Shown in pieces: positions 482 through 12,125 of a DNA stretch of 16,732 nucleotides (positions are counted from its first letter, which is position 1; every line of letters starts with the position of its first letter). A program made the translations under genes and the position numbers. Below the pieces are notes generated by a model. The model had not been told where the DNA came from and searched no databases. It saw only the letters and a program-made list of their open reading frames with translations. Source of the DNA: Candidatus Heimdallarchaeota archaeon (GTDB taxonomy: Archaea; Asgardarchaeota; Heimdallarchaeia; Heimdallarchaeales; Kariarchaeaceae); NCBI GenBank assembly GCA_015523565.1, contig WAKA01000052.1:1-16732 (forward strand), written 5' to 3'.

Positions 482-3394
482 ATGGGACGACAAACTCCTT
501 CAACTTTTCCTTGGATAAAAAAGGAAGAGGCGGATTCCCACTTCACCCCTAGAAAATGGGGGTGGAAAGCTTGGATTGGCCGCCATCTGCTTGGGATAGT
601 GGTCATCTATGCCTATATCCTTTGGAATTTTCCTCAATTCGCCCCTGATTTTGATCTGTGGCTGCGTAAGATAAGACTTGTTGTGTCGCAGCATGGAGTG
701 GACATTGTCGTTTGGTTGTGTCTTCTTTCTTACAGGTATCGTATTCGGTTCAGCTATTGGCAAATGACAATTCGCCCATTGACTTTGACTTGGCAGACCG
801 AAGTGGCAGTACTTGTTGAATTTGCTGCAAAGATGGAACACCCCCTACCTTTTGCGTCCTTTGCCTCAACCATTGGGGCAGAGCTTAGTTATTGGATCCT
901 TCATGATATCCATCAGTTCTCCTATCTGGTTGCCTACCGCAGAACCCGGCGATTTTTTCCCTATTTGCCTTTAACCCTGAAGCATCAGATTCTGAGCAGT
1001 CTCAAGTCGGTGGCCGCCCAAGGACGGACGGTTCCATTCAGAAATCTGCCTCGGCGAGTGAAACGCCTTGACTTTGTCCATGTACCTGACCTGAATGACC
1101 TGTTCCAGAAGCTTGTTCTCCTCAATCCTCAGGGTCGATTTGCATTTGCAGTGCTTTACCGCTTCGCCAAAGTTGATCGGATCATTACCGGGGAAATGCT
1201 TACTGCCACGCGACAGGTCAACCACATTCCGTTGGTTCGCATCCAGTGTTGCTTGTGGGCATCAGAAAGAGCCACTCGAAATCAATTGAAAGGGCTAATC
1301 AGTGGTGTGACAGAATCAAGGGCTTGGGTTTGGCCCAAGCTTCATCTTTTCCAACCCGAATTGTTTCCGCTCCCATTTCCTCCCTTCTTACCTCAGTCCG
1401 CGCGAGCGAGCCAAGGTCACAAAGGGACTCAAGTCGGTTATGTGAAGTTGAAGAACACCAAGGTTGCTCCGTACCGTCTTGAACCGGAAGACCTGTATCA
1501 CGGGGGAGTCATTGCAGGGGCCATCGGCATGGGAAAAACAACGTTACGGCTGGCTTTGACTGATTTGCTTCTCCGTCATGACGTCAGGATCATTGATTTT
1601 GATCCCAAGGGTGATACTGCCCGTTCTCTGCATTTCAGGCAGTTTGGAACCCCTCTGAAGCCTGGAGTCAATTTTGTGCACAACCTGTTCAGCAAACCGG
1701 CCAATGTGTCCTCTCATGATTTTACTTCCTTTCTGTACAACCTATTGTTGGACGTAATTGGACCGGATGTAACCCCTCCTCAGCAAAAGTTACTGTTTGA
1801 GGCCATCGACCGGGTGGTTGCCCTGAACGGCAACTGTTTGGATTTTCTAAGGGAGATCACCTTTTTGGGCATCCAACAGGGGCAGAGGCGAAAAGGGTTT
1901 CAGCGTCAAACCGCACAAGCGTTGGAAGCCAAATTTGCTTGGATGCATGGGCCATTGCGGGATGTCTTTTGGACGGAGGAAAGTGATTTGACAGAGTCAT
2001 TGTTTCAAAAATCAGTGTTCTTTGACCTTTCCAAACTGTACTCCTTGGTGCCCCTGCCATTGATCCGACTTTTCATCAATTTAGTGGTGTTCTATATCAA
2101 TTTCAGCAACTTGGCCCAACAACAGGGGAAAGTTTGTATCACCTTGGACGAGGCCCAGCTCTTCATGCCCCGAACCCATGGTGACCTGAGCCGATTGGAG
2201 CAATCAATTGTCACCTTGCGTGAGGCAGGGGTTTTTGTGATTGCATCAGGGGTGGATACTGCATTGATGAGCCGAGTATTGCTTGATGTCGGGTTTGTGG
2301 CGCAGTTTCGAAGCGGTTCTCGCGAACTTAGATCGGTACTAGAGGCACAGGAAACGGACTATCAGGATCTGCAACGGCATGAATGCCTTGTCAGAAGGCT
2401 ACTCAAGGACGAACAGCTTCTGAAAATCGAGACTATTCCCTTTGAAGACGAGAAGGAACCGCGGTTGATGACCGTTCGAAGTGCCTCCCTTCTCCCCCCC
2501 TTCCAAACAGAAGACCGTTTTGTCCGTTTGTGTGAATTACTGGTTCGTATCCCTGAACTGGAGGGATATTCGTGGACTGAATTGAGTCGCAGATTGCAAA
2601 AGCATGGACGGTTGTTTGATGGTGTTGCTGAATCTCCGTCACTGTTGGAAAGCCAATCCCCAATCGATCAACATCTGCTTTTGGCAGCCAAGCTTTCCGA
2701 ATTGCCAATCAGGGAGGCACTTCCTCTCCTCGGCACCAAATCCCTGAGGATGCTCAAAGGTGAACCGATTGAAATTAGGCTTGATCAATTTGAGGAACAG
2801 AATGAAGACAAAAATGACATAGGACCTGACCAATTGGGAAAACTAATTGGTATTGATGACCTGTTCAAGGAATTGAAAGAAGACAACTTGAATGACTCCT
2901 TTGAACAGAAGGAAAGGAAACCCGATAAGTTTGAGGAAATGAAACCGCTACAAGAAACTCCCCATAAGTTCCATAAAGGTGCAAACAAAAGTTGGCGAAC
3001 TTTGAGATCGACAGGCTACCGGCACATGTTTGTGCTCTGCAAGTTCAAGAAGGCATCTCTCTATTTCAGGAAATGTCAAAACCTAATAGGCCAAGATGAA
3101 AAACAAAAAGCAATCATAGACCTTTTGCTTGTAGAGAGTCTGGTCTTGGCCGGCCAACTCACACAAGCCAAAGAAGAGGCCTATCGGCAGTATCAGAGCA
3201 ACCCGAAGAATGCGGTGGCCAGTCATCAGTTTCTTATGCTTTCATATCTGCTGAATGAATTTGAACATGTGCCAAAAGTGCTTAAAGATCTGTATAAATT
3301 AAACCAAGATGCAGCCCAAGCTCTTCTTCCTCTGTTTCCCGTATCCATCCGGCAGGAATTCAGGACATTAAATAATAAACTGGAGAATATTTAA
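482..3394 (+). CDS. Membrane-anchored HerA/VirB4/FtsK-superfamily (DUF87-like) P-loop ATPase with C-terminal TPR-like helices
   Basis: 970-aa ORF with N-terminal hydrophobic segments (LLGIVVIYAYILW; IVVWLCLL). Walker A GAIGMGKTT at 1517-1543, HerA/VirB4-type IIDFDPKGD, VFFDLS, Walker B ITLDEAQ at 2138-2158. An acidic linker is followed by a helical-repeat-like tail (KFKKASLYFRKC...AGQLTQAKEEA...PKNAVA). Confidence 0.8.
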   Translation: MGRQTPSTFPWIKKEEADSHFTPRKWGWKAWIGRHLLGIVVIYAYILWNFPQFAPDFDLWLRKIRLVVSQHGVDIVVWLCLLSYRYRIRFSYWQMTIRPLTLTWQTEVAVLVEFAAKMEHPLPFASFASTIGAELSYWILHDIHQFSYLVAYRRTRRFFPYLPLTLKHQILSSLKSVAAQGRTVPFRNLPRRVKRLDFVHVPDLNDLFQKLVLLNPQGRFAFAVLYRFAKVDRIITGEMLTATRQVNHIPLVRIQCCLWASERATRNQLKGLISGVTESRAWVWPKLHLFQPELFPLPFPPFLPQSARASQGHKGTQVGYVKLKNTKVAPYRLEPEDLYHGGVIAGAIGMGKTTLRLALTDLLLRHDVRIIDFDPKGDTARSLHFRQFGTPLKPGVNFVHNLFSKPANVSSHDFTSFLYNLLLDVIGPDVTPPQQKLLFEAIDRVVALNGNCLDFLREITFLGIQQGQRRKGFQRQTAQALEAKFAWMHGPLRDVFWTEESDLTESLFQKSVFFDLSKLYSLVPLPLIRLFINLVVFYINFSNLAQQQGKVCITLDEAQLFMPRTHGDLSRLEQSIVTLREAGVFVIASGVDTALMSRVLLDVGFVAQFRSGSRELRSVLEAQETDYQDLQRHECLVRRLLKDEQLLKIETIPFEDEKEPRLMTVRSASLLPPFQTEDRFVRLCELLVRIPELEGYSWTELSRRLQKHGRLFDGVAESPSLLESQSPIDQHLLLAAKLSELPIREALPLLGTKSLRMLKGEPIEIRLDQFEEQNEDKNDIGPDQLGKLIGIDDLFKELKEDNLNDSFEQKERKPDKFEEMKPLQETPHKFHKGANKSWRTLRSTGYRHMFVLCKFKKASLYFRKCQNLIGQDEKQKAIIDLLLVESLVLAGQLTQAKEEAYRQYQSNPKNAVASHQFLMLSYLLNEFEHVPKVLKDLYKLNQDAAQALLPLFPVSIRQEFRTLNNKLENI

Positions 3395-3437: not shown

Positions 3438-3439
3438 AT

Positions 3440-3715
3440 GCACTTATGGTTATACCTTCGTGGCAAACCTAGTGCCCCTTTAGTGTCTTACTATACCTTC
3501 GTGGCAAGTAAACACCCATGCACTCAAGGATACACCTTCGTGGCAATCCTAGTGCTCCTGCACTCATGGTTATACCTTTGTGGCAAACCTGGTGCCCCTT
3601 TAGTGTCTTACTATACCTTCGTGGCAAGTAAACACTCAAGCACTCAAGGATACACCTTCGTGGCAATCCTAGTGCTCCTGCACTCATGGTTATACCTTCG
3701 TGGCAAACCTGGTGC
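3440..3715. repeat. Tandem array of 7 hairpin units with a conserved 16-nt core TAYACCTTYGTGGCAA (period 41/39/40; higher-order period 120 bp)
   Basis: Cores start at 3451, 3492, 3531, 3571, 3612, 3651 and 3691. Each is flanked by complementary arms. Type A: GCACT..GGT/ACC.(A/G)GTGC. Type B: (A)GTGT.TTAC/GTAAACAC(T). Type C: GCACT..AGGA/TCCTAGTGC. Order A-B-C-A-B-C-A. Confidence 0.93.
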
Positions 3716-3798
3716 AATCTGAAAAAGGTGAAAACAAATGAACACAATATCTGAACTCCTCACGGAACTGACATTTTGTCAGATATTGAACGGCAACT

Positions 3799-3805
3799 GG
3801 AGGTG
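3799..3805 (+). promoter_or_regulatory. Shine-Dalgarno motif GGAGGTG for the TnpB-like gene
   Basis: GGAGGTG lies 6 nt upstream of the in-frame ATG at 3812, favouring 3812 over the TTG at 3776 as the start. Confidence 0.7.
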
Positions 3806-3811
3806 CGGTAT

Positions 3812-5611
3812 ATGGAAACATTGACCTATGATGTCCCTCTGAAGTTTCCTGACCGTAAATTGAACAAGCTGGCACGAGCCAAACTTCAATCTCTTCTAGA
3901 CAGAAGCCTTGACATCCTCAATACCAAAGTTGTCTGGTATCGGGCCCTTTGGGTAACCAGTCCTCATTTTGTTCCGCAATTAAAGGCGTTACGAAATCAG
4001 AAACTGTTGATCAAACGACGAAAAGGGCAATCCATATCAGGGACCATGTTCAAGGCAAGCGTTCTGCGCAATGAACTCAAAGGGGTGATCCCCAACCATG
4101 CCGCCAACCTGAATGAATCAGTGTATCTGCATGCGCTTTCAACTGCCGCCGGTCATCGCCATCGGTTGACAATAGCCAGAACAGTGGTCAAGCAATTGAC
4201 TCCGTTACGCTATACGGAACTGTTACTGTTCGGCCAAACCGATAAGTTGATTTCAGTCATTGTTGATCAGTTCAACTACTCTTGGCTTGGAGCGAAAGTT
4301 GTTCTGAAAGGCATGGCTAAGCGGATGCAGCAGTTGAGCCCGGTGACAATCACCTCTTCTGTGACACTGCCGGATCCCAAGGACTTTGCCAATGCATTGC
4401 ACCAAGAAGGGCTCATCAACTCGCACCATGCCCAGCACAAGCTTCAAAGGCTTCTTATGCTGGCCAATTCTGTCGAGTTCGCAGGGCATCTTCAATGGTG
4501 GCTACAGCAGGCATCTTCTGGCAATGATTGCTGGAAGTTGACCAAGAAGCTGAGCAAAAGGCTCGGAATTCATTCCAAGGATCGGCTGTTTATGCGCCTG
4601 CTCAAGCACTATCTGGCCTATCTTCTTCTTCGGCCCTCTGTCCCCAAATTTCGTGCCGGTGATCTTATCACTACCCCAGTCTACAAGCGCACCACGATCT
4701 GGTTGGTAATGGGGAGCAAGTACGTAATCAAACGTCCGGGTAATGCCTCAACTATAAGGCAAATGATACTGGACGGCAAGGATATTGAGCTGCATTTCGG
4801 CTACAAGTACAAGATTCCCGTGAAAGGCTTGCTTAAGGTCCATCACAAGATGAGGCAGATCTTAAAAACCGGAGATCTGCGATGCATTGCCCTTTCAATC
4901 AACCCAAAAAACAATTTGATCCGTGCCCAATTGATTGTTGACAGAACTGACTTCCGCATCCACCTGCGAAAATTGAAGGTTCCAAAGGCAAAAGTTGTGG
5001 GAATCGATCTGAACAAGATCGGGAAGCACATTGTCGCTTTTTCCATTCCCTATACTGATCCCGGACTCAACAAACTCTGCGCCAAATATTGGCAGTACAA
5101 GGACCTGATCAGGGAGCTGCAAAGCAAACTGGATCGCCAGCGACGTCCCAATCCCCGATTGCATGAGCAAATCAGGCAATTGCATCGTAAGCGAAAGGAT
5201 ATTCGCAGAGCAATCCATAACATGCTGGTACCGCTGATTGCATCTGTCGTGGCTAGTAGTGGAGCAGAGACGTTAGTTATGGAACGCCTCCATATGAAAC
5301 CTCATGGACTGAAGAAGGGATTGGCTGAAGCGGTAAACAGCATGCCCAAAACGGGCTTGCAACTCCGACTGAAACAAGCCCTTCCCAATGTGGAAATTGT
5401 GTCAATTGATCCATGGAAACCTGCATTTAAGATCCATGCTAACTGCGGTGGAAAATTGGATCGAAAAAAGAATTGGCACTATCCTCCATGCAGCAAATGC
5501 AAAGCAGAGGTCAACAGTCATGAAAATGCCGCAAAAATGCTGGTCAAATATTACTTAAGCTCTTCAACAATCCAGCAATTCCTCTCGTCGCTTACCGGGA
5601 GAAAGTCCTAA
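3812..5611 (+). CDS. tnpB: Large TnpB/Cas12-like RuvC + zinc-ribbon protein (~599 aa), possibly catalytically altered
   Basis: Very basic protein. RuvC-I VVGIDLN (D at 5006), bridge-helix-like coiled region (IRELQSKLDR...LHRKRKDIRRAIH), RuvC-II LVMERL (E at 5282), VSIDP, Zn ribbon HxxC...CxxC (5435-5500), RuvC-III-like NSHENAAK. Co-oriented downstream of IS607 tnpA. Confidence 0.85.
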   Translation: METLTYDVPLKFPDRKLNKLARAKLQSLLDRSLDILNTKVVWYRALWVTSPHFVPQLKALRNQKLLIKRRKGQSISGTMFKASVLRNELKGVIPNHAANLNESVYLHALSTAAGHRHRLTIARTVVKQLTPLRYTELLLFGQTDKLISVIVDQFNYSWLGAKVVLKGMAKRMQQLSPVTITSSVTLPDPKDFANALHQEGLINSHHAQHKLQRLLMLANSVEFAGHLQWWLQQASSGNDCWKLTKKLSKRLGIHSKDRLFMRLLKHYLAYLLLRPSVPKFRAGDLITTPVYKRTTIWLVMGSKYVIKRPGNASTIRQMILDGKDIELHFGYKYKIPVKGLLKVHHKMRQILKTGDLRCIALSINPKNNLIRAQLIVDRTDFRIHLRKLKVPKAKVVGIDLNKIGKHIVAFSIPYTDPGLNKLCAKYWQYKDLIRELQSKLDRQRRPNPRLHEQIRQLHRKRKDIRRAIHNMLVPLIASVVASSGAETLVMERLHMKPHGLKKGLAEAVNSMPKTGLQLRLKQALPNVEIVSIDPWKPAFKIHANCGGKLDRKKNWHYPPCSKCKAEVNSHENAAKMLVKYYLSSSTIQQFLSSLTGRKS

Positions 5612-6860
5612 CGGATAACTGGTCGATTTGGCTAGATTTAATGTAATGCGTTGAGACTGTGAAAAGTCCTAGACTATCTGACAAAACGATTGTTATATTG
5701 TTCATGCCAATATTCAAGTTATCAAGGGAGAAGGAGATGGAGGCGTTTGAGATCCAATTTCCAGAGTCAACAACTATGCCGTTCATGAATAATTGATATT
5801 GATTGGGGGATGTATCCATGGCGATCCATTCGATTGAGGATTGATCCAATTGGCTTTCCTCGATTTGTAGGTCGTCAGGTTCCGAGATGATTTGTGGGGG
5901 TTGATTTGTGACAGTCAACCAAACAGTATGTGTTGCCGCATTATGTCCCATGTCTTTCACCAGCAGGGTGACGTTGTAAATCCCAGGTTCAAGTCCAGTC
6001 AATGTAATGGTGTTGGAGAGACCAGACACCCAAGTTCCATAGTCAATTTGTTCACCATTCAGGAACACGTAATACATACTAGGGTCTTCATCAGTTGCCA
6101 CCCATTCGATAACAGCAGGGGAAAATTCGGCAACGGTGATGTTGTTTGCTGCAGAAATTGTCGGGGGAGTGTAGGGATGCGTTTCATGAAAATCAAAAGT
6201 GTTGTTGAGAGCCGTGTTGTTGATCATTTCCACGTTGAAGGGATTTTGGAGGAAAAAGCCGTAGCCATTGAACGTGGCAAAATTGTCCATGACAATTGAA
6301 TCATTGATGAACAGGTTGAATCCCTTGATGTCATTGAAGGCGGCCTCGTTGTTGACAATTGAATAGTTGCTTCCCATTGCATAAATTCCGTCATTTACGT
6401 TATTGTATGCAAAATTTCCTTGGATGGTGGTGTTTGTCATGCCACTGAAAGACAATCCAATCTTATTGCCAAATGCCGTATTATTCATGACACTAATGTC
6501 CATCCCGTCAAAAAGATTAATGCCTGCAAAATCGCTGTTTTCTATTGAGTTGTCAGCAAAAGTGTTTTGGAAACCTTTCATGCCGTAGATTCCACTGGAG
6601 GTGATGTTTGACAGGAAATTGTTGGAAATAATGGTGTTGTTTGCATTATTCAAGTAAATGCCATTGTCGTTTTCATATATTTTGTTTCCCATAATTTGTG
6701 AGTGTGAAATGTTGGTCATGCTGAGACTAGTTACCGAATTGATGATTTCATTTGACAGGACATTAATGTTTTCACCATAGGTGACCAGAATGCCATGTTG
6801 TGCATTTTCCATGGAAGATTTCAATACTAAACAATGGATGAATTGAAACTCAGTCAGCAC
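5592..6860 (-). CDS. NosD/right-handed beta-helix repeat protein with two Ig-like repeats; probably a truncated fragment of a cell-surface protein
   Basis: Asn-rich repeats (NKIYENDNGIYL, NNTAFGNKIGL, NNEAAFNDIKGF), then two ~90-aa repeats (PPTIS...IEWVATDEDPSMYYVFLNG...GTW...GIYNVTLLVKDMG / PPQIIS...IEWIAMDTSPNQYQLFMNG...GNW...GMNNITIVLSDSLG). No signal peptide or membrane anchor; start uncertain. Confidence 0.75.
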   Translation of the reverse strand: MLTEFQFIHCLVLKSSMENAQHGILVTYGENINVLSNEIINSVTSLSMTNISHSQIMGNKIYENDNGIYLNNANNTIISNNFLSNITSSGIYGMKGFQNTFADNSIENSDFAGINLFDGMDISVMNNTAFGNKIGLSFSGMTNTTIQGNFAYNNVNDGIYAMGSNYSIVNNEAAFNDIKGFNLFINDSIVMDNFATFNGYGFFLQNPFNVEMINNTALNNTFDFHETHPYTPPTISAANNITVAEFSPAVIEWVATDEDPSMYYVFLNGEQIDYGTWVSGLSNTITLTGLEPGIYNVTLLVKDMGHNAATHTVWLTVTNQPPQIISEPDDLQIEESQLDQSSIEWIAMDTSPNQYQLFMNGIVVDSGNWISNASISFSLDNLNIGMNNITIVLSDSLGLFTVSTHYIKSSQIDQLSVRTFSR

Positions 6861-7319
6861 TGGAACCGTTTTCCCTAGGATCTTTAGATCCTTTCATACT
6901 CGGACTATCAACACCAAACACCAAAAAGGGATTCAATAGTCTTCCAGTGGAATATAACGTGAAGATCAGCCCCATAGTTGCAGGAGCAACGATCGTCAGT
7001 GATTTAAGGATTGCAAACGAAAGCATAAGGTTATTTAGATCCTGTCCAATATAAACACACCTAAATCTCTGAAATTGGGAAAAATTTGGGAAAGACCAAG
7101 GTGCTCCGACTGAACTCATTTTGTTTTCAGCTACAGTCCTTCACGCCGAAAGCAAGCTACACCTATGAAAACAGCAAACGAGTTTCAGAAAAACACTGTG
7201 AACCAATAGTTGGTCTATCTAGGCTTAATGCAGCTATAAAGAACATATGGGATCATGAAAATGTGAATTAAATAAAAAAATTTTGTATATTGGAAAGACG
7301 AAATTATACATAACAGGGA

Positions 7320-9338
7320 TTATTTTTGTTTATTTTTTCTGTATACCAAGATGATTAGGGTGAAAGTGCCGACCAATCCAATATTGAGCGGAGAGAAATT
7401 CTTGTTGGATCCAGAACCATGGAAACCGTTCACTGCATCCTCATAACTGACTGCAGGAGCTCGGTATGAAACAACAAAAGGACCCCTGAACCCAGTGAGG
7501 AAGAATTCATTTGCGGCATACATTCCTTTGTCAGTATAGAAGGTATAGTCAGTGACATTCCAAGATCCATTTGAGAGACGGATTTCACCAGCAGGCATTG
7601 GAGCCATGCCATTTGTTGCACCTGCCGACTTTTGCATAGGGGGCAGGGGGATGTTGTCGGAATCCACATTTCCTCCAGTCACATGGTCTTCAGAAAGTTG
7701 GAAGCCAGAGTTATCCACAGCAGTTTCAAAGAATTGGATGAGGCGGTAGTGGGCAAGAGGGGATGCCTTTTCATCTGCCAATCCCATGATGCTTCTAAGT
7801 CCTGCAACGACGCTTGCAATGCTTGCGGGGTTGTAAACTTGTTCGGTTGCATCTTCAGAGCTTCTGTAAACCATGTTGTCATCATCCCACAAATTGTTTT
7901 CAATGAATGAGAATGCAGACAGTGCGGCATCCTTGAATTTGGTATCTCCTGTAAGGTTATAGGCAGTGATCAGTCCCCTTATGGCACTGCCTTGGGTTTC
8001 AATTGTTCGGGCAGTGGTGCTTGGAGCATTCTGTGCAAGGTCAAAGCTGTTGTCAAATCCGCCATCGTTCCTTTGCAGGTTATCGACAAGGAAATTTGCT
8101 TGATCACGGATGAATTGGGTTTGGTTCATGGCGTCATTTGTTGCGGAACTCCATTGTGCCAAGGCAATGATGGCTTTCGAGATGGTTTTGGTGCTGGCTG
8201 TTTTTCCTGGAGTGAGTGTTCCAGAGTTATAGGAAGCAGTGTCAACAAATGTTTTGGCAGTTGCATCCCAATGCCAGTTTTTCATGGTCAGCCATGCGAT
8301 TTTTGCCAATCCCTTTCCAAGGTCTGCGGGACCAGGCTTTCCTGTTTCTGCCATCGATCCAGGGAATGGTTGGGCACCAGTTCCATCTCCTCCGAACACA
8401 TCATCCTGTTCGGGGGCATTTGCCCATTCGAAGAACTTGGATGCCATCCAGAGCAGGGACAATTGATCCCATAAATTGGAGCTGGAATCAACGATGGAGT
8501 AGTTTTCGGGCATTGGCATTTGCATGGACCCTCCTGCGGGGACTGTCATTTTGGTATCATAGGTGTATCTATGTGCAAAGTAGTAGTTCCCTGCATTTGT
8601 AGCAGGATCCAATTGTCCGTCCATGGTTCCGTTGGCAATGTTCACGGCAAGGACATTCTTGAGGAACTGCATTTTGTTGATCAATTCAGCAGTGAGCACG
8701 AACCCCCTGAATCCATCGGTTGTGTAGTCATCAGGATTCACTTTGCCCTTGCCTAATGCCACATTCCCTTGAAGTGCTTTTTGGCTGGAATCAACGGGAC
8801 TGTCAGTCAATTCATTTGTGTCGACCAAATGGTTCTTGCTGAAGAATTCCTCTGCCCACAAGACATTCTTGAGTCCGCTTTGTGCCAATGCGGCGGGATA
8901 TAAGTCTCGGTCGGCAGTACTCAAATCCCAACGGAGTGTGGCAAAATCGTTTGGATTATTTGTATCCACAGCCTGTGAAAAGAATGGTTTTGCAGAGGCA
9001 AATTCCGCGAAAATGGGAAACGGATTCATTGGAGGTGATGCATGGGTGATGTTTGCGGCCATTTTTATCTTCATCATCATCATGCTGAGGTTTCCTTGAA
9101 ACACAGGGCTGAACACCATATGGAGACCTGCACCCGATCTCATTTCAAGGTGTCCCAGATAGTAGCGTGAATACCAATAGCCCTCATTGATGACTTCTCC
9201 CCAACTTAATGTGGGTTCATTTGTTGTTGACGCAGCGTTGCTTATTTGGACAGTGCCAATCAGCAATGAAAGAATATAAAGCAACACTGCCGCGGTGCGT
9301 AATTTATTCCAGATAAAGGTACGTTGTATTTTTTTCAT
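7320..9338 (-). CDS. Secreted, C-terminally membrane-anchored protein with probable alpha/alpha-barrel (six-hairpin-like) C-terminal region; function unknown
   Basis: 672 aa. Signal peptide (MKKIQR...AAVLLYILSLLIG...SNA). Helical-hairpin motifs (ANFLVDNLQRNDGGF; AYNLTGDTKFKDAALSAFSFIENNLWD). C-terminal PL-hydrophobic helix-RKNKQK sorting-like tail. Confidence 0.75.
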   Translation of the reverse strand: MKKIQRTFIWNKLRTAAVLLYILSLLIGTVQISNAASTTNEPTLSWGEVINEGYWYSRYYLGHLEMRSGAGLHMVFSPVFQGNLSMMMMKIKMAANITHASPPMNPFPIFAEFASAKPFFSQAVDTNNPNDFATLRWDLSTADRDLYPAALAQSGLKNVLWAEEFFSKNHLVDTNELTDSPVDSSQKALQGNVALGKGKVNPDDYTTDGFRGFVLTAELINKMQFLKNVLAVNIANGTMDGQLDPATNAGNYYFAHRYTYDTKMTVPAGGSMQMPMPENYSIVDSSSNLWDQLSLLWMASKFFEWANAPEQDDVFGGDGTGAQPFPGSMAETGKPGPADLGKGLAKIAWLTMKNWHWDATAKTFVDTASYNSGTLTPGKTASTKTISKAIIALAQWSSATNDAMNQTQFIRDQANFLVDNLQRNDGGFDNSFDLAQNAPSTTARTIETQGSAIRGLITAYNLTGDTKFKDAALSAFSFIENNLWDDDNMVYRSSEDATEQVYNPASIASVVAGLRSIMGLADEKASPLAHYRLIQFFETAVDNSGFQLSEDHVTGGNVDSDNIPLPPMQKSAGATNGMAPMPAGEIRLSNGSWNVTDYTFYTDKGMYAANEFFLTGFRGPFVVSYRAPAVSYEDAVNGFHGSGSNKNFSPLNIGLVGTFTLIILVYRKNKQK

Positions 9339-11477: not shown

Positions 11478-12125
11478 TCATTTGTTTTCCTCAAATGTGA
11501 TGGTAAGTGTCCCCAACTCAGTCTCACCTTGGAGGATCGTCAATTCATGAGTTGACAGGACAACATGAAGGATGGGGTCTATTCCATTTTCTGTGATAAT
11601 CTTGTCAATTGGAGCGTTCAATTTGCGTGCCACTTTTTTCATCATGTCCAAGTGATGGGGGGTCAATTCCTTTCCAGACCGGGTCACATATTGTACTTTG
11701 CGTTTCATGGTTCTTTTTTGGGGCTTCCAGTTAATTTTTTGGAGAAGTTGGTAGACATAATTTCGGTGAATTACGATGCCCATTTTCTCTGTGATGAATT
11801 GATGGATCAATTGCACAGTCCATCCATTTTCAGGGTAGCCGAAGTCTTTGGGGTCATGTTTCAAAGCTTCCTTCAGTTCAGCGAGATTGACCTTCTGTTT
11901 TCTTCCTCGTTTACTTGGTGGAGACAATATCCCATTTATTCCATATTTCTTGTACTTTCTCAACCAATAGTAAATTTGATCCCGATTTAGGAGGAAGATT
12001 TCACAAAGTTCGTCAACCTTTTTTCCTTTCAGGTAATGGATTACAAGAAGTATTCTGAACTTTATTGCATGATTTTTTTCCTTTTGGCAGATATCCACAA
12101 GTGTTTCGAGTTCAGATGGCAACAA
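11478..12125 (-). CDS. IS630-transposase-like tandem HTH/winged-HTH protein lacking a recognisable DDE domain
   Basis: RILLVIHYLKG...IYYWLRKYKKYGINGI...RGRKQK...P.DFGY...WTVQLI...I...GI......V..LL...W matches the IS630 N-terminal DNA-binding region. The remaining ~75 aa show no intact DDE triad. Confidence 0.7.
   Translation of the reverse strand: MLPSELETLVDICQKEKNHAIKFRILLVIHYLKGKKVDELCEIFLLNRDQIYYWLRKYKKYGINGILSPPSKRGRKQKVNLAELKEALKHDPKDFGYPENGWTVQLIHQFITEKMGIVIHRNYVYQLLQKINWKPQKRTMKRKVQYVTRSGKELTPHHLDMMKKVARKLNAPIDKIITENGIDPILHVVLSTHELTILQGETELGTLTITFEENK

Follow-up and report, generated by a model that had tools for sequence, protein, structure and literature searches.

A conserved D-E-H catalytic triad in a mobile IS607-type TnpB family of Asgard archaea, predicted to be an active homing nuclease

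The window, the whole 16,732-nucleotide stretch of Candidatus Heimdallarchaeota DNA analysed here, opens inside an IS607 element whose order is a frameshifted tnpA, a HerA-like ATPase gene, a hairpin array and tnpB. The tnpA serine recombinase gene (1–448, + strand; NF033518, 2.7e-29) has its 5′ part beyond the contig start and is frameshifted just past the catalytic motif (positions 1–90); sister contigs carry a second shift upstream together with the N-terminal HTH part, and a congener's copy has an internal stop. With its tnpA frameshifted, the element is probably non-autonomous. A membrane-anchored HerA/VirB4-like ATPase follows as cargo (482–3394, +; Walker A at 1517, Walker B at 2144), then seven 40-nt hairpins with a constant core and covarying stems, defined by repeat and folding analysis (3439–3715), and a 28-residue upstream ORF (3738–3824, +) that has its own ribosome-binding site, overlaps the start of tnpB (3812–5611, +) and has a similar counterpart in a related element (L325). 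The right end with its putative omega-RNA scaffold (5513–5650, +) overlaps the 3′ end of tnpB and is kept in all mini-elements examined; the adjoining host flank (5651–5670, +) forms the predicted guide. A host gene for a β-helix/PKD surface protein (5592–6860, −) overlaps the right-end boundary at 5650, its last ~20 codons extending into the element's right end, and was probably interrupted by the insertion. None of three congeners showed the insertion site in an empty state, and no convincing one was seen among the loci examined. Near the surface-protein gene, reads include a variant of 6784–7360 in which 436 nt are exchanged for 725 others, reflecting strain variation, and an ORF at 11478–12125 (−) encodes an IS630-like HTH protein with an unknown part fused at its C-terminus.

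The hairpin array folds much more stably on the minus strand (z −7.3) than on the plus strand (z −2.5) and is kept as two units at L325:1815-1938. A CRISPR reading was ruled out: the array contains duplicated units, varies in its stems and has no unique spacers. Searching the genome contigs with the array core returned scattered single matches only. At the array's position in the subclade that carries a helicase gene, another conserved segment of ~200 nt lies directly upstream of tnpB (L161:6250-6490, L165:5400-5675, L324:1360-1605). Rfam gave no match to the array or to conserved segments upstream of tnpB (for the ~200-nt segment, L161 and L165 were scanned).

The tnpB frame is open from a TTG at 3776 (611 residues, along which residue numbers are counted here) and from an ATG at 3812 (599 residues); the latter is probably the true start, as the family profile match begins there and a relative shares it. 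The ORF, NCBIfam, a structure model and the family profile describe a large IS607-type TnpB with an enlarged helical lobe, although the NCBIfam scores themselves (guided_TnpB 1e-9, IS607_TnpB 1e-7) both lie under the cut-off. An AlphaFold model (pLDDT 85.5) finds its best fold matches in Cas12f/TnpB (Foldseek E 2e-10; VIA comparison Z 12.6, rmsd 5.2, 349 residues aligned), and model, fold searches and profile alignment together place a WED-REC-RuvC-zinc ribbon fold in the protein. A PDB search with the single sequence found no match, and a related-locus search with the window's protein in genomes and metagenomes found none.

Motif reading places the RuvC-I aspartate D411 at 5006–5008 (+), in GIDLN starting at 5000 and with N413 close by, and the RuvC-II glutamate E503 at 5282–5284 (+), in VMERL starting at 5276. 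The RuvC-III position is occupied by H582 (5519–5521, +, in NSHENAA starting at 5513), followed by E583 (5522–5524, +). A zinc ribbon (5435–5500, +) is formed by H554 and C557 (HxxC, 5435–5446) with C572 and C575 (CxxC, 5489–5500), and encloses a conserved R563. The D-E-H triad and the HxxC/CxxC ribbon are thus as the initial annotation read them. Its consensus alignment was right to set the histidine at the third catalytic aspartate; the nearest consensus is of NADxN type, however, and not the DRDxN that it had used. In a gap-free alignment the family profile VNtHxNAA matches NADYNAA of AsCas12f1 and CnCas12f1, which puts H582 on D401 of AsCas12f1, a residue that we take to be catalytic, and E583 on the variable Tyr402. 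A sequencing error at the histidine is ruled out by a protein of 96% identity in a second assembly, which also reads NSHENAA, and by the absence of any change in the H582 codon among the variants listed for four sequencing runs.

A cluster-representative search yielded 80 relatives. Family matches occur in 38 of 61 related genomes, with up to 11 per genome, and in 43 of 301 genomes of a phylum sample at 1e-30, mostly in the window's order; named records among the relatives belong to Candidatus Heimdallarchaeota. This is a multi-copy Asgard IS607-type TnpB family, found mainly in Heimdallarchaeia. Six relatives of 1000–1800 residues (P0047, P0049, P0050, P0052, P0060 and P0076, the last at L356) carry the same RuvC/zinc module at the end of very long N-termini that have no clear Pfam match; P0049 and P0076 were confirmed to carry the His motif.

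An alignment of 141 distinct homologs has His at the position of H582 in 136 of 138 and Gln in the other two, alongside D411 in 130 of 131, E503 in 137 of 137, N413 in 130 of 131 and R563 in 137 of 139, counts that are not independent because many rows come from one genus. The catalytic D, E and H are fixed at 98.6–100% and the four zinc ligands are invariant; these residues, with N413 and R563, are the most fixed columns in a family whose members share 21–38% identity. The suggestion of a rewired site is borne out to this extent. The initial annotation had also raised two ways in which the oddity might dissolve, namely that close homologs all carry Asp or that the adjacent Glu fills the site. 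No homolog has Asp here (0 of 138), so the canonical D-E-D triad is absent from the family, and in the tree canonical DRDxN matches fall only outside the His clade. Glu at position 583 occurs in 11 of 138 homologs, and compensation by it is therefore ruled out. Relocation of the third acid fails as well: D411 and E503 are the only invariant acidic columns, and the 93%-conserved D568 column, itself His in the window's protein, aligns to a non-catalytic Asp of Cas12f.

Both histidine codons are in use (40 CAC, 34 CAT). Across 14 pairs of family genes dN/dS is 0.10–0.19, and the RuvC part of the window's gene differs from that of L001 by 22 synonymous and 7 non-synonymous changes (dN/dS 0.10). 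Judged by these rates the family evolves under purifying selection, and the alignment identifies the histidine as a family trait rather than decay of the window's copy. Drift is what one would expect of a dead site, and the D-E-H site shows none.

The right end of the element has a sub-terminal inverted repeat (5627–5639), hairpins in which the changes seen in L325 and L001 are compensated, and a CG core (5649–5650), beyond which copies diverge sharply; Rfam gave no match to this end. Elsewhere in the genome, mini-elements join the 5′ part of tnpA to the element's final ~140 nt between differing flanks (non-autonomous mini-elements and element ends on contigs C34, C45, C220, C9, C221 and C109 of G000), with joints at 5411 and 5513 formed by short microhomology. 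Read depth over the right-end segment is 81, against 15–19 in its flanks, in one sequencing run. ACCG precedes all six left ends inspected for the window's element type, in this genome and a congener, and the CG core is present at both ends with no target-site duplication. Among relatives, left and right core dinucleotides agree in 14 of 14 elements (nine CG/CG and five TG/TG), which represent few independent changes. From the ACCG at left ends and the matching end cores we predict a family target motif and TAM of 5′-ACYG (AC[C/T]G) and a guide starting at 5651, so that the target of the window's guide would be 5′-ACCG followed by the sequence of 5651–5670; the window's own genome holds no TAM-flanked match to it. 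Family genes often lie directly behind tnpA, with flanks that differ between copies, and the family is still mobile.

This architecture closely parallels that of known IS607 TnpB/omega-RNA systems, the CboTnpB IStron (10.1101/2023.11.20.567912) and ISFba1 TnpB (PDB 8iaz). All have a serine-recombinase tnpA upstream, a TnpB/Cas12f fold and a 2-bp core common to both ends, at which, on the prediction made here for the window's family, the scaffold stops and the flank becomes the guide; the identity of target motif and TAM, demonstrated for active CboTnpB (10.1101/2023.11.20.567912), is predicted for the window's family. The differences are a D-E-H rather than D-E-D triad, ~600–680 residues against ~400, an HCCC zinc ribbon in the window's family, a YG core and ACYG motif in place of GG and TGGG, no detected group I intron in the family, and 2–3 kb of NTPase cargo in the window's subclade.

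Other His-type tnpB genes stand without a transposase beside tRNA genes, for tRNA-Cys (L186, L187, L226, L232, L233, L244, L178), tRNA-Asn (L190, L192, L195, L018), tRNA-Ser (L185), tRNA-Pro (L203) and tRNA-Leu (L212, L229, L014). In the tree, types with several members form clades that follow the target tRNA, and the mobile clade nests among these solo genes. Their guide flanks resemble the neighbouring tRNA gene without matching it, the linked alleles being recoded. At 16 tRNA-Cys loci the scaffold end is followed by a guide whose conservation spans 20 nt exactly and then falls from 0.81 to 0.38; each genome has one matching gene, and every linked tRNA-Cys allele at the 16 loci has a mismatch at guide positions 1–2 (the seed), a broken TAM or both. 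Linked Ser, Leu and Pro tRNA alleles also lack ACYG. At five further loci a scaffold end and a tRNA-Cys guide lie beside tRNA-Cys with no tnpB in the stretch examined (L257, at a contig end, L261, L262, L267 and L268), and one genome carries a second tRNA-Cys-like fragment (G033:C19:20511-20542) ~2.3 kb from its tRNA-Cys gene. Two genera share one guide (L206:5385 and L223:5471, oriented coordinates) that matches an intergenic element just downstream with 2–3 mismatches, no TAM and no Rfam match.

The tRNA-Cys genes themselves are more varied than those of two control tRNAs, with 21 alleles in 23 genomes and a mean pairwise difference of 14.4 nt, against 3.5 for tRNA-Thr and 6.2 for tRNA-Ala; the variation extends outside the guide region. 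Alleles without a TAM differ less from the consensus guide (p 0.04, one-sided); p-values in these comparisons overstate the evidence, because the genomes are kin. Distances to the guide do not differ significantly between a genome's own allele and those of other genomes (5.8 versus 5.2 mismatches, p 0.11), only two guide–allele cross pairs look cleavable, and a split into ACCN and ACTN (p 0.0008) is a post hoc comparison on which we do not rely. Escape of the linked alleles from the guide is compatible with cut-and-rescue homing, as for the free-standing homing endonuclease SegB of phage T4 (PMC13565253), which resembles the solo relatives in adjoining tRNA genes and in having a resistant linked allele. 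The likeness is an analogy, applying to these relatives and not to the window's copy, and the relatives differ in being RNA-guided, chromosomal and archaeal. Escape of an essential tRNA gene is equally expected from lethal binding without cutting.

We predict, with a probability of about two in three, that the window's TnpB is a functional D-E-H homing nuclease, either a double-strand cutter or a nickase. The fixed residues, purifying selection, mobility, matched end cores and guide/TAM architecture argue for activity. TnpA would insert the element at 5′-AC[C/T]G sites through a YG crossover dinucleotide; TnpB would load an omega-RNA made of its own 3′ end and ~20 nt of flank and cut or nick the vacated or empty allele beside an ACYG TAM, after which recombination would restore or spread the element. 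Expression of the omega-RNA, the TAM as a requirement of TnpB, catalysis and homing are steps that we infer. H582 would replace a metal-A ligand, as does the histidine of DEDH Argonautes, to which it is presumably equivalent in position. His may be tolerated at Asp134 of RNase HI, a precedent that we do not use as support. Argonautes of the RNase H fold cleave with a DEDH site whose last catalytic residue is His (PMC10772731); they share the fold with TnpB, on a different scaffold and with a four-residue site.

The strongest competing explanation, which we nonetheless judge unlikely, is that the family binds its targets under RNA guidance without nuclease activity, repressing or blocking them in the manner of TldR or Cas12m, with D and E kept for structure or RNA processing. 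Replacement of the third aspartate would suit such a binder, as would the recoded tRNA alleles if binding silences an essential gene. TldR, Cas12k and Cas12m share the TnpB/Cas12 fold and an altered canonical catalytic residue; they are immobilised or linked to CRISPR or Tn7, and their catalytic sites are degenerate (PMC10691335). In the window's family, by contrast, two acids and the histidine are fixed without drift in an IS607 context, the family still transposes with tnpA, its flank-derived, variable guides offer a repressor no consistent target, and the loci examined show no CRISPR array, Tn7 genes or flagellin/ABC context. The initial annotation's proposal of a nuclease-dead protein like TldR, Cas12k or Cas12m is therefore disfavoured: the family shows no drift at its remaining catalytic positions, it is mobile, and its predicted guide/TAM layout is that of IS607 TnpBs that home.

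A marginally less probable alternative is that the family cuts and the window's own copy has lost activity in part or in full and is carried along in an immobilised element. The protein sits on a long branch and has lost several family residues (D568 to H, D525 to K, R414 to K), its tnpA is frameshifted, and internal deletions are present in its relatives L001 and L325. Against this, the tnpB frame is intact, the substitutions that separate its RuvC part from L001 are mostly synonymous, as given above, and the mini-elements with differing flanks indicate recent mobility.

The cargo bears on one further proposal. Linkage of the ATPase to tnpB recurs in a congener (G001:C80) and at L001 and L325, and the ATPase-array-tnpB order of L325 is held at ~71% nucleotide identity. 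Most His-type tnpB genes have tnpA directly upstream or stand alone, without the ATPase, whose homologs elsewhere are chromosomal and in two congeners lie near cdc6. Within the window's subclade (99% SH-aLRT, long branches), a sister IS607 element instead orders tnpA, an XPD/DinG-like helicase gene and a His-type tnpB (L161:3410-8400), and a helicase gene lies directly upstream of a His-type tnpB, with no tnpA detected, at L165:3231-7389. The histidine is thus older than and independent of the cargo, and the ATPase and array are unrelated to it. That the histidine reflects a rewired site through which TnpB cooperates with the ATPase or recombinase, for instance by using its RNA to direct ATP-driven transfer or integration to a target, is accordingly very improbable despite the recurrent order and the NTPase of the sister element, since the histidine predates a cargo that most members lack and insertion sites are scattered and set by a 4-nt motif rather than by the guide; the initial annotation's idea of a protein serving the ATPase falls with it.

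Substitution of the RuvC-III Asp by His is in principle no novelty, having already been described computationally. Altae-Tran et al. (2023; PMC10691335) recognized six TnpB branches with altered RuvC-III, the largest of which, RIIIr-4, has a conserved His in place of the Asp, lacks a zinc finger and includes RHH/MazE-linked members; they infer retained activity for conserved RuvC-III rearrangements. The window's family shares with RIIIr-4 the conserved His and the prediction of activity, and it is not RIIIr-4, because it keeps the zinc finger (H554, C557, C572 and C575) and is IS607-linked. It may correspond to the archaeal Ser-6 or RIIIr-6 branch.

Our literature search found no paper showing cleavage by any D-E-H TnpB and none on Heimdall TnpBs or tRNA-targeting TnpB. 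Because the ends of the element reveal its TAM, guide and scaffold limit, an activity test in this family would be direct and cheap. If active, these proteins would provide a compact class of programmable nuclease or nickase with a GC-rich TAM, and annotation that admits only D-E-D would be misfiling working enzymes as dead. More tentatively, with the odds rather against so full a picture, they may constitute an independent Asgard lineage of D-E-H RNA-guided nucleases that have an ACYG TAM and differ in their chemistry, for instance as natural nickases or in metal preference, acting both in NTPase-carrying IS607 cargo transposons and in transposase-less homing cassettes that diversify essential tRNA genes. 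The relatives beside tRNA genes suggest that RNA-guided homing on essential genes occurs naturally in the prokaryotes most closely related to eukaryotes.
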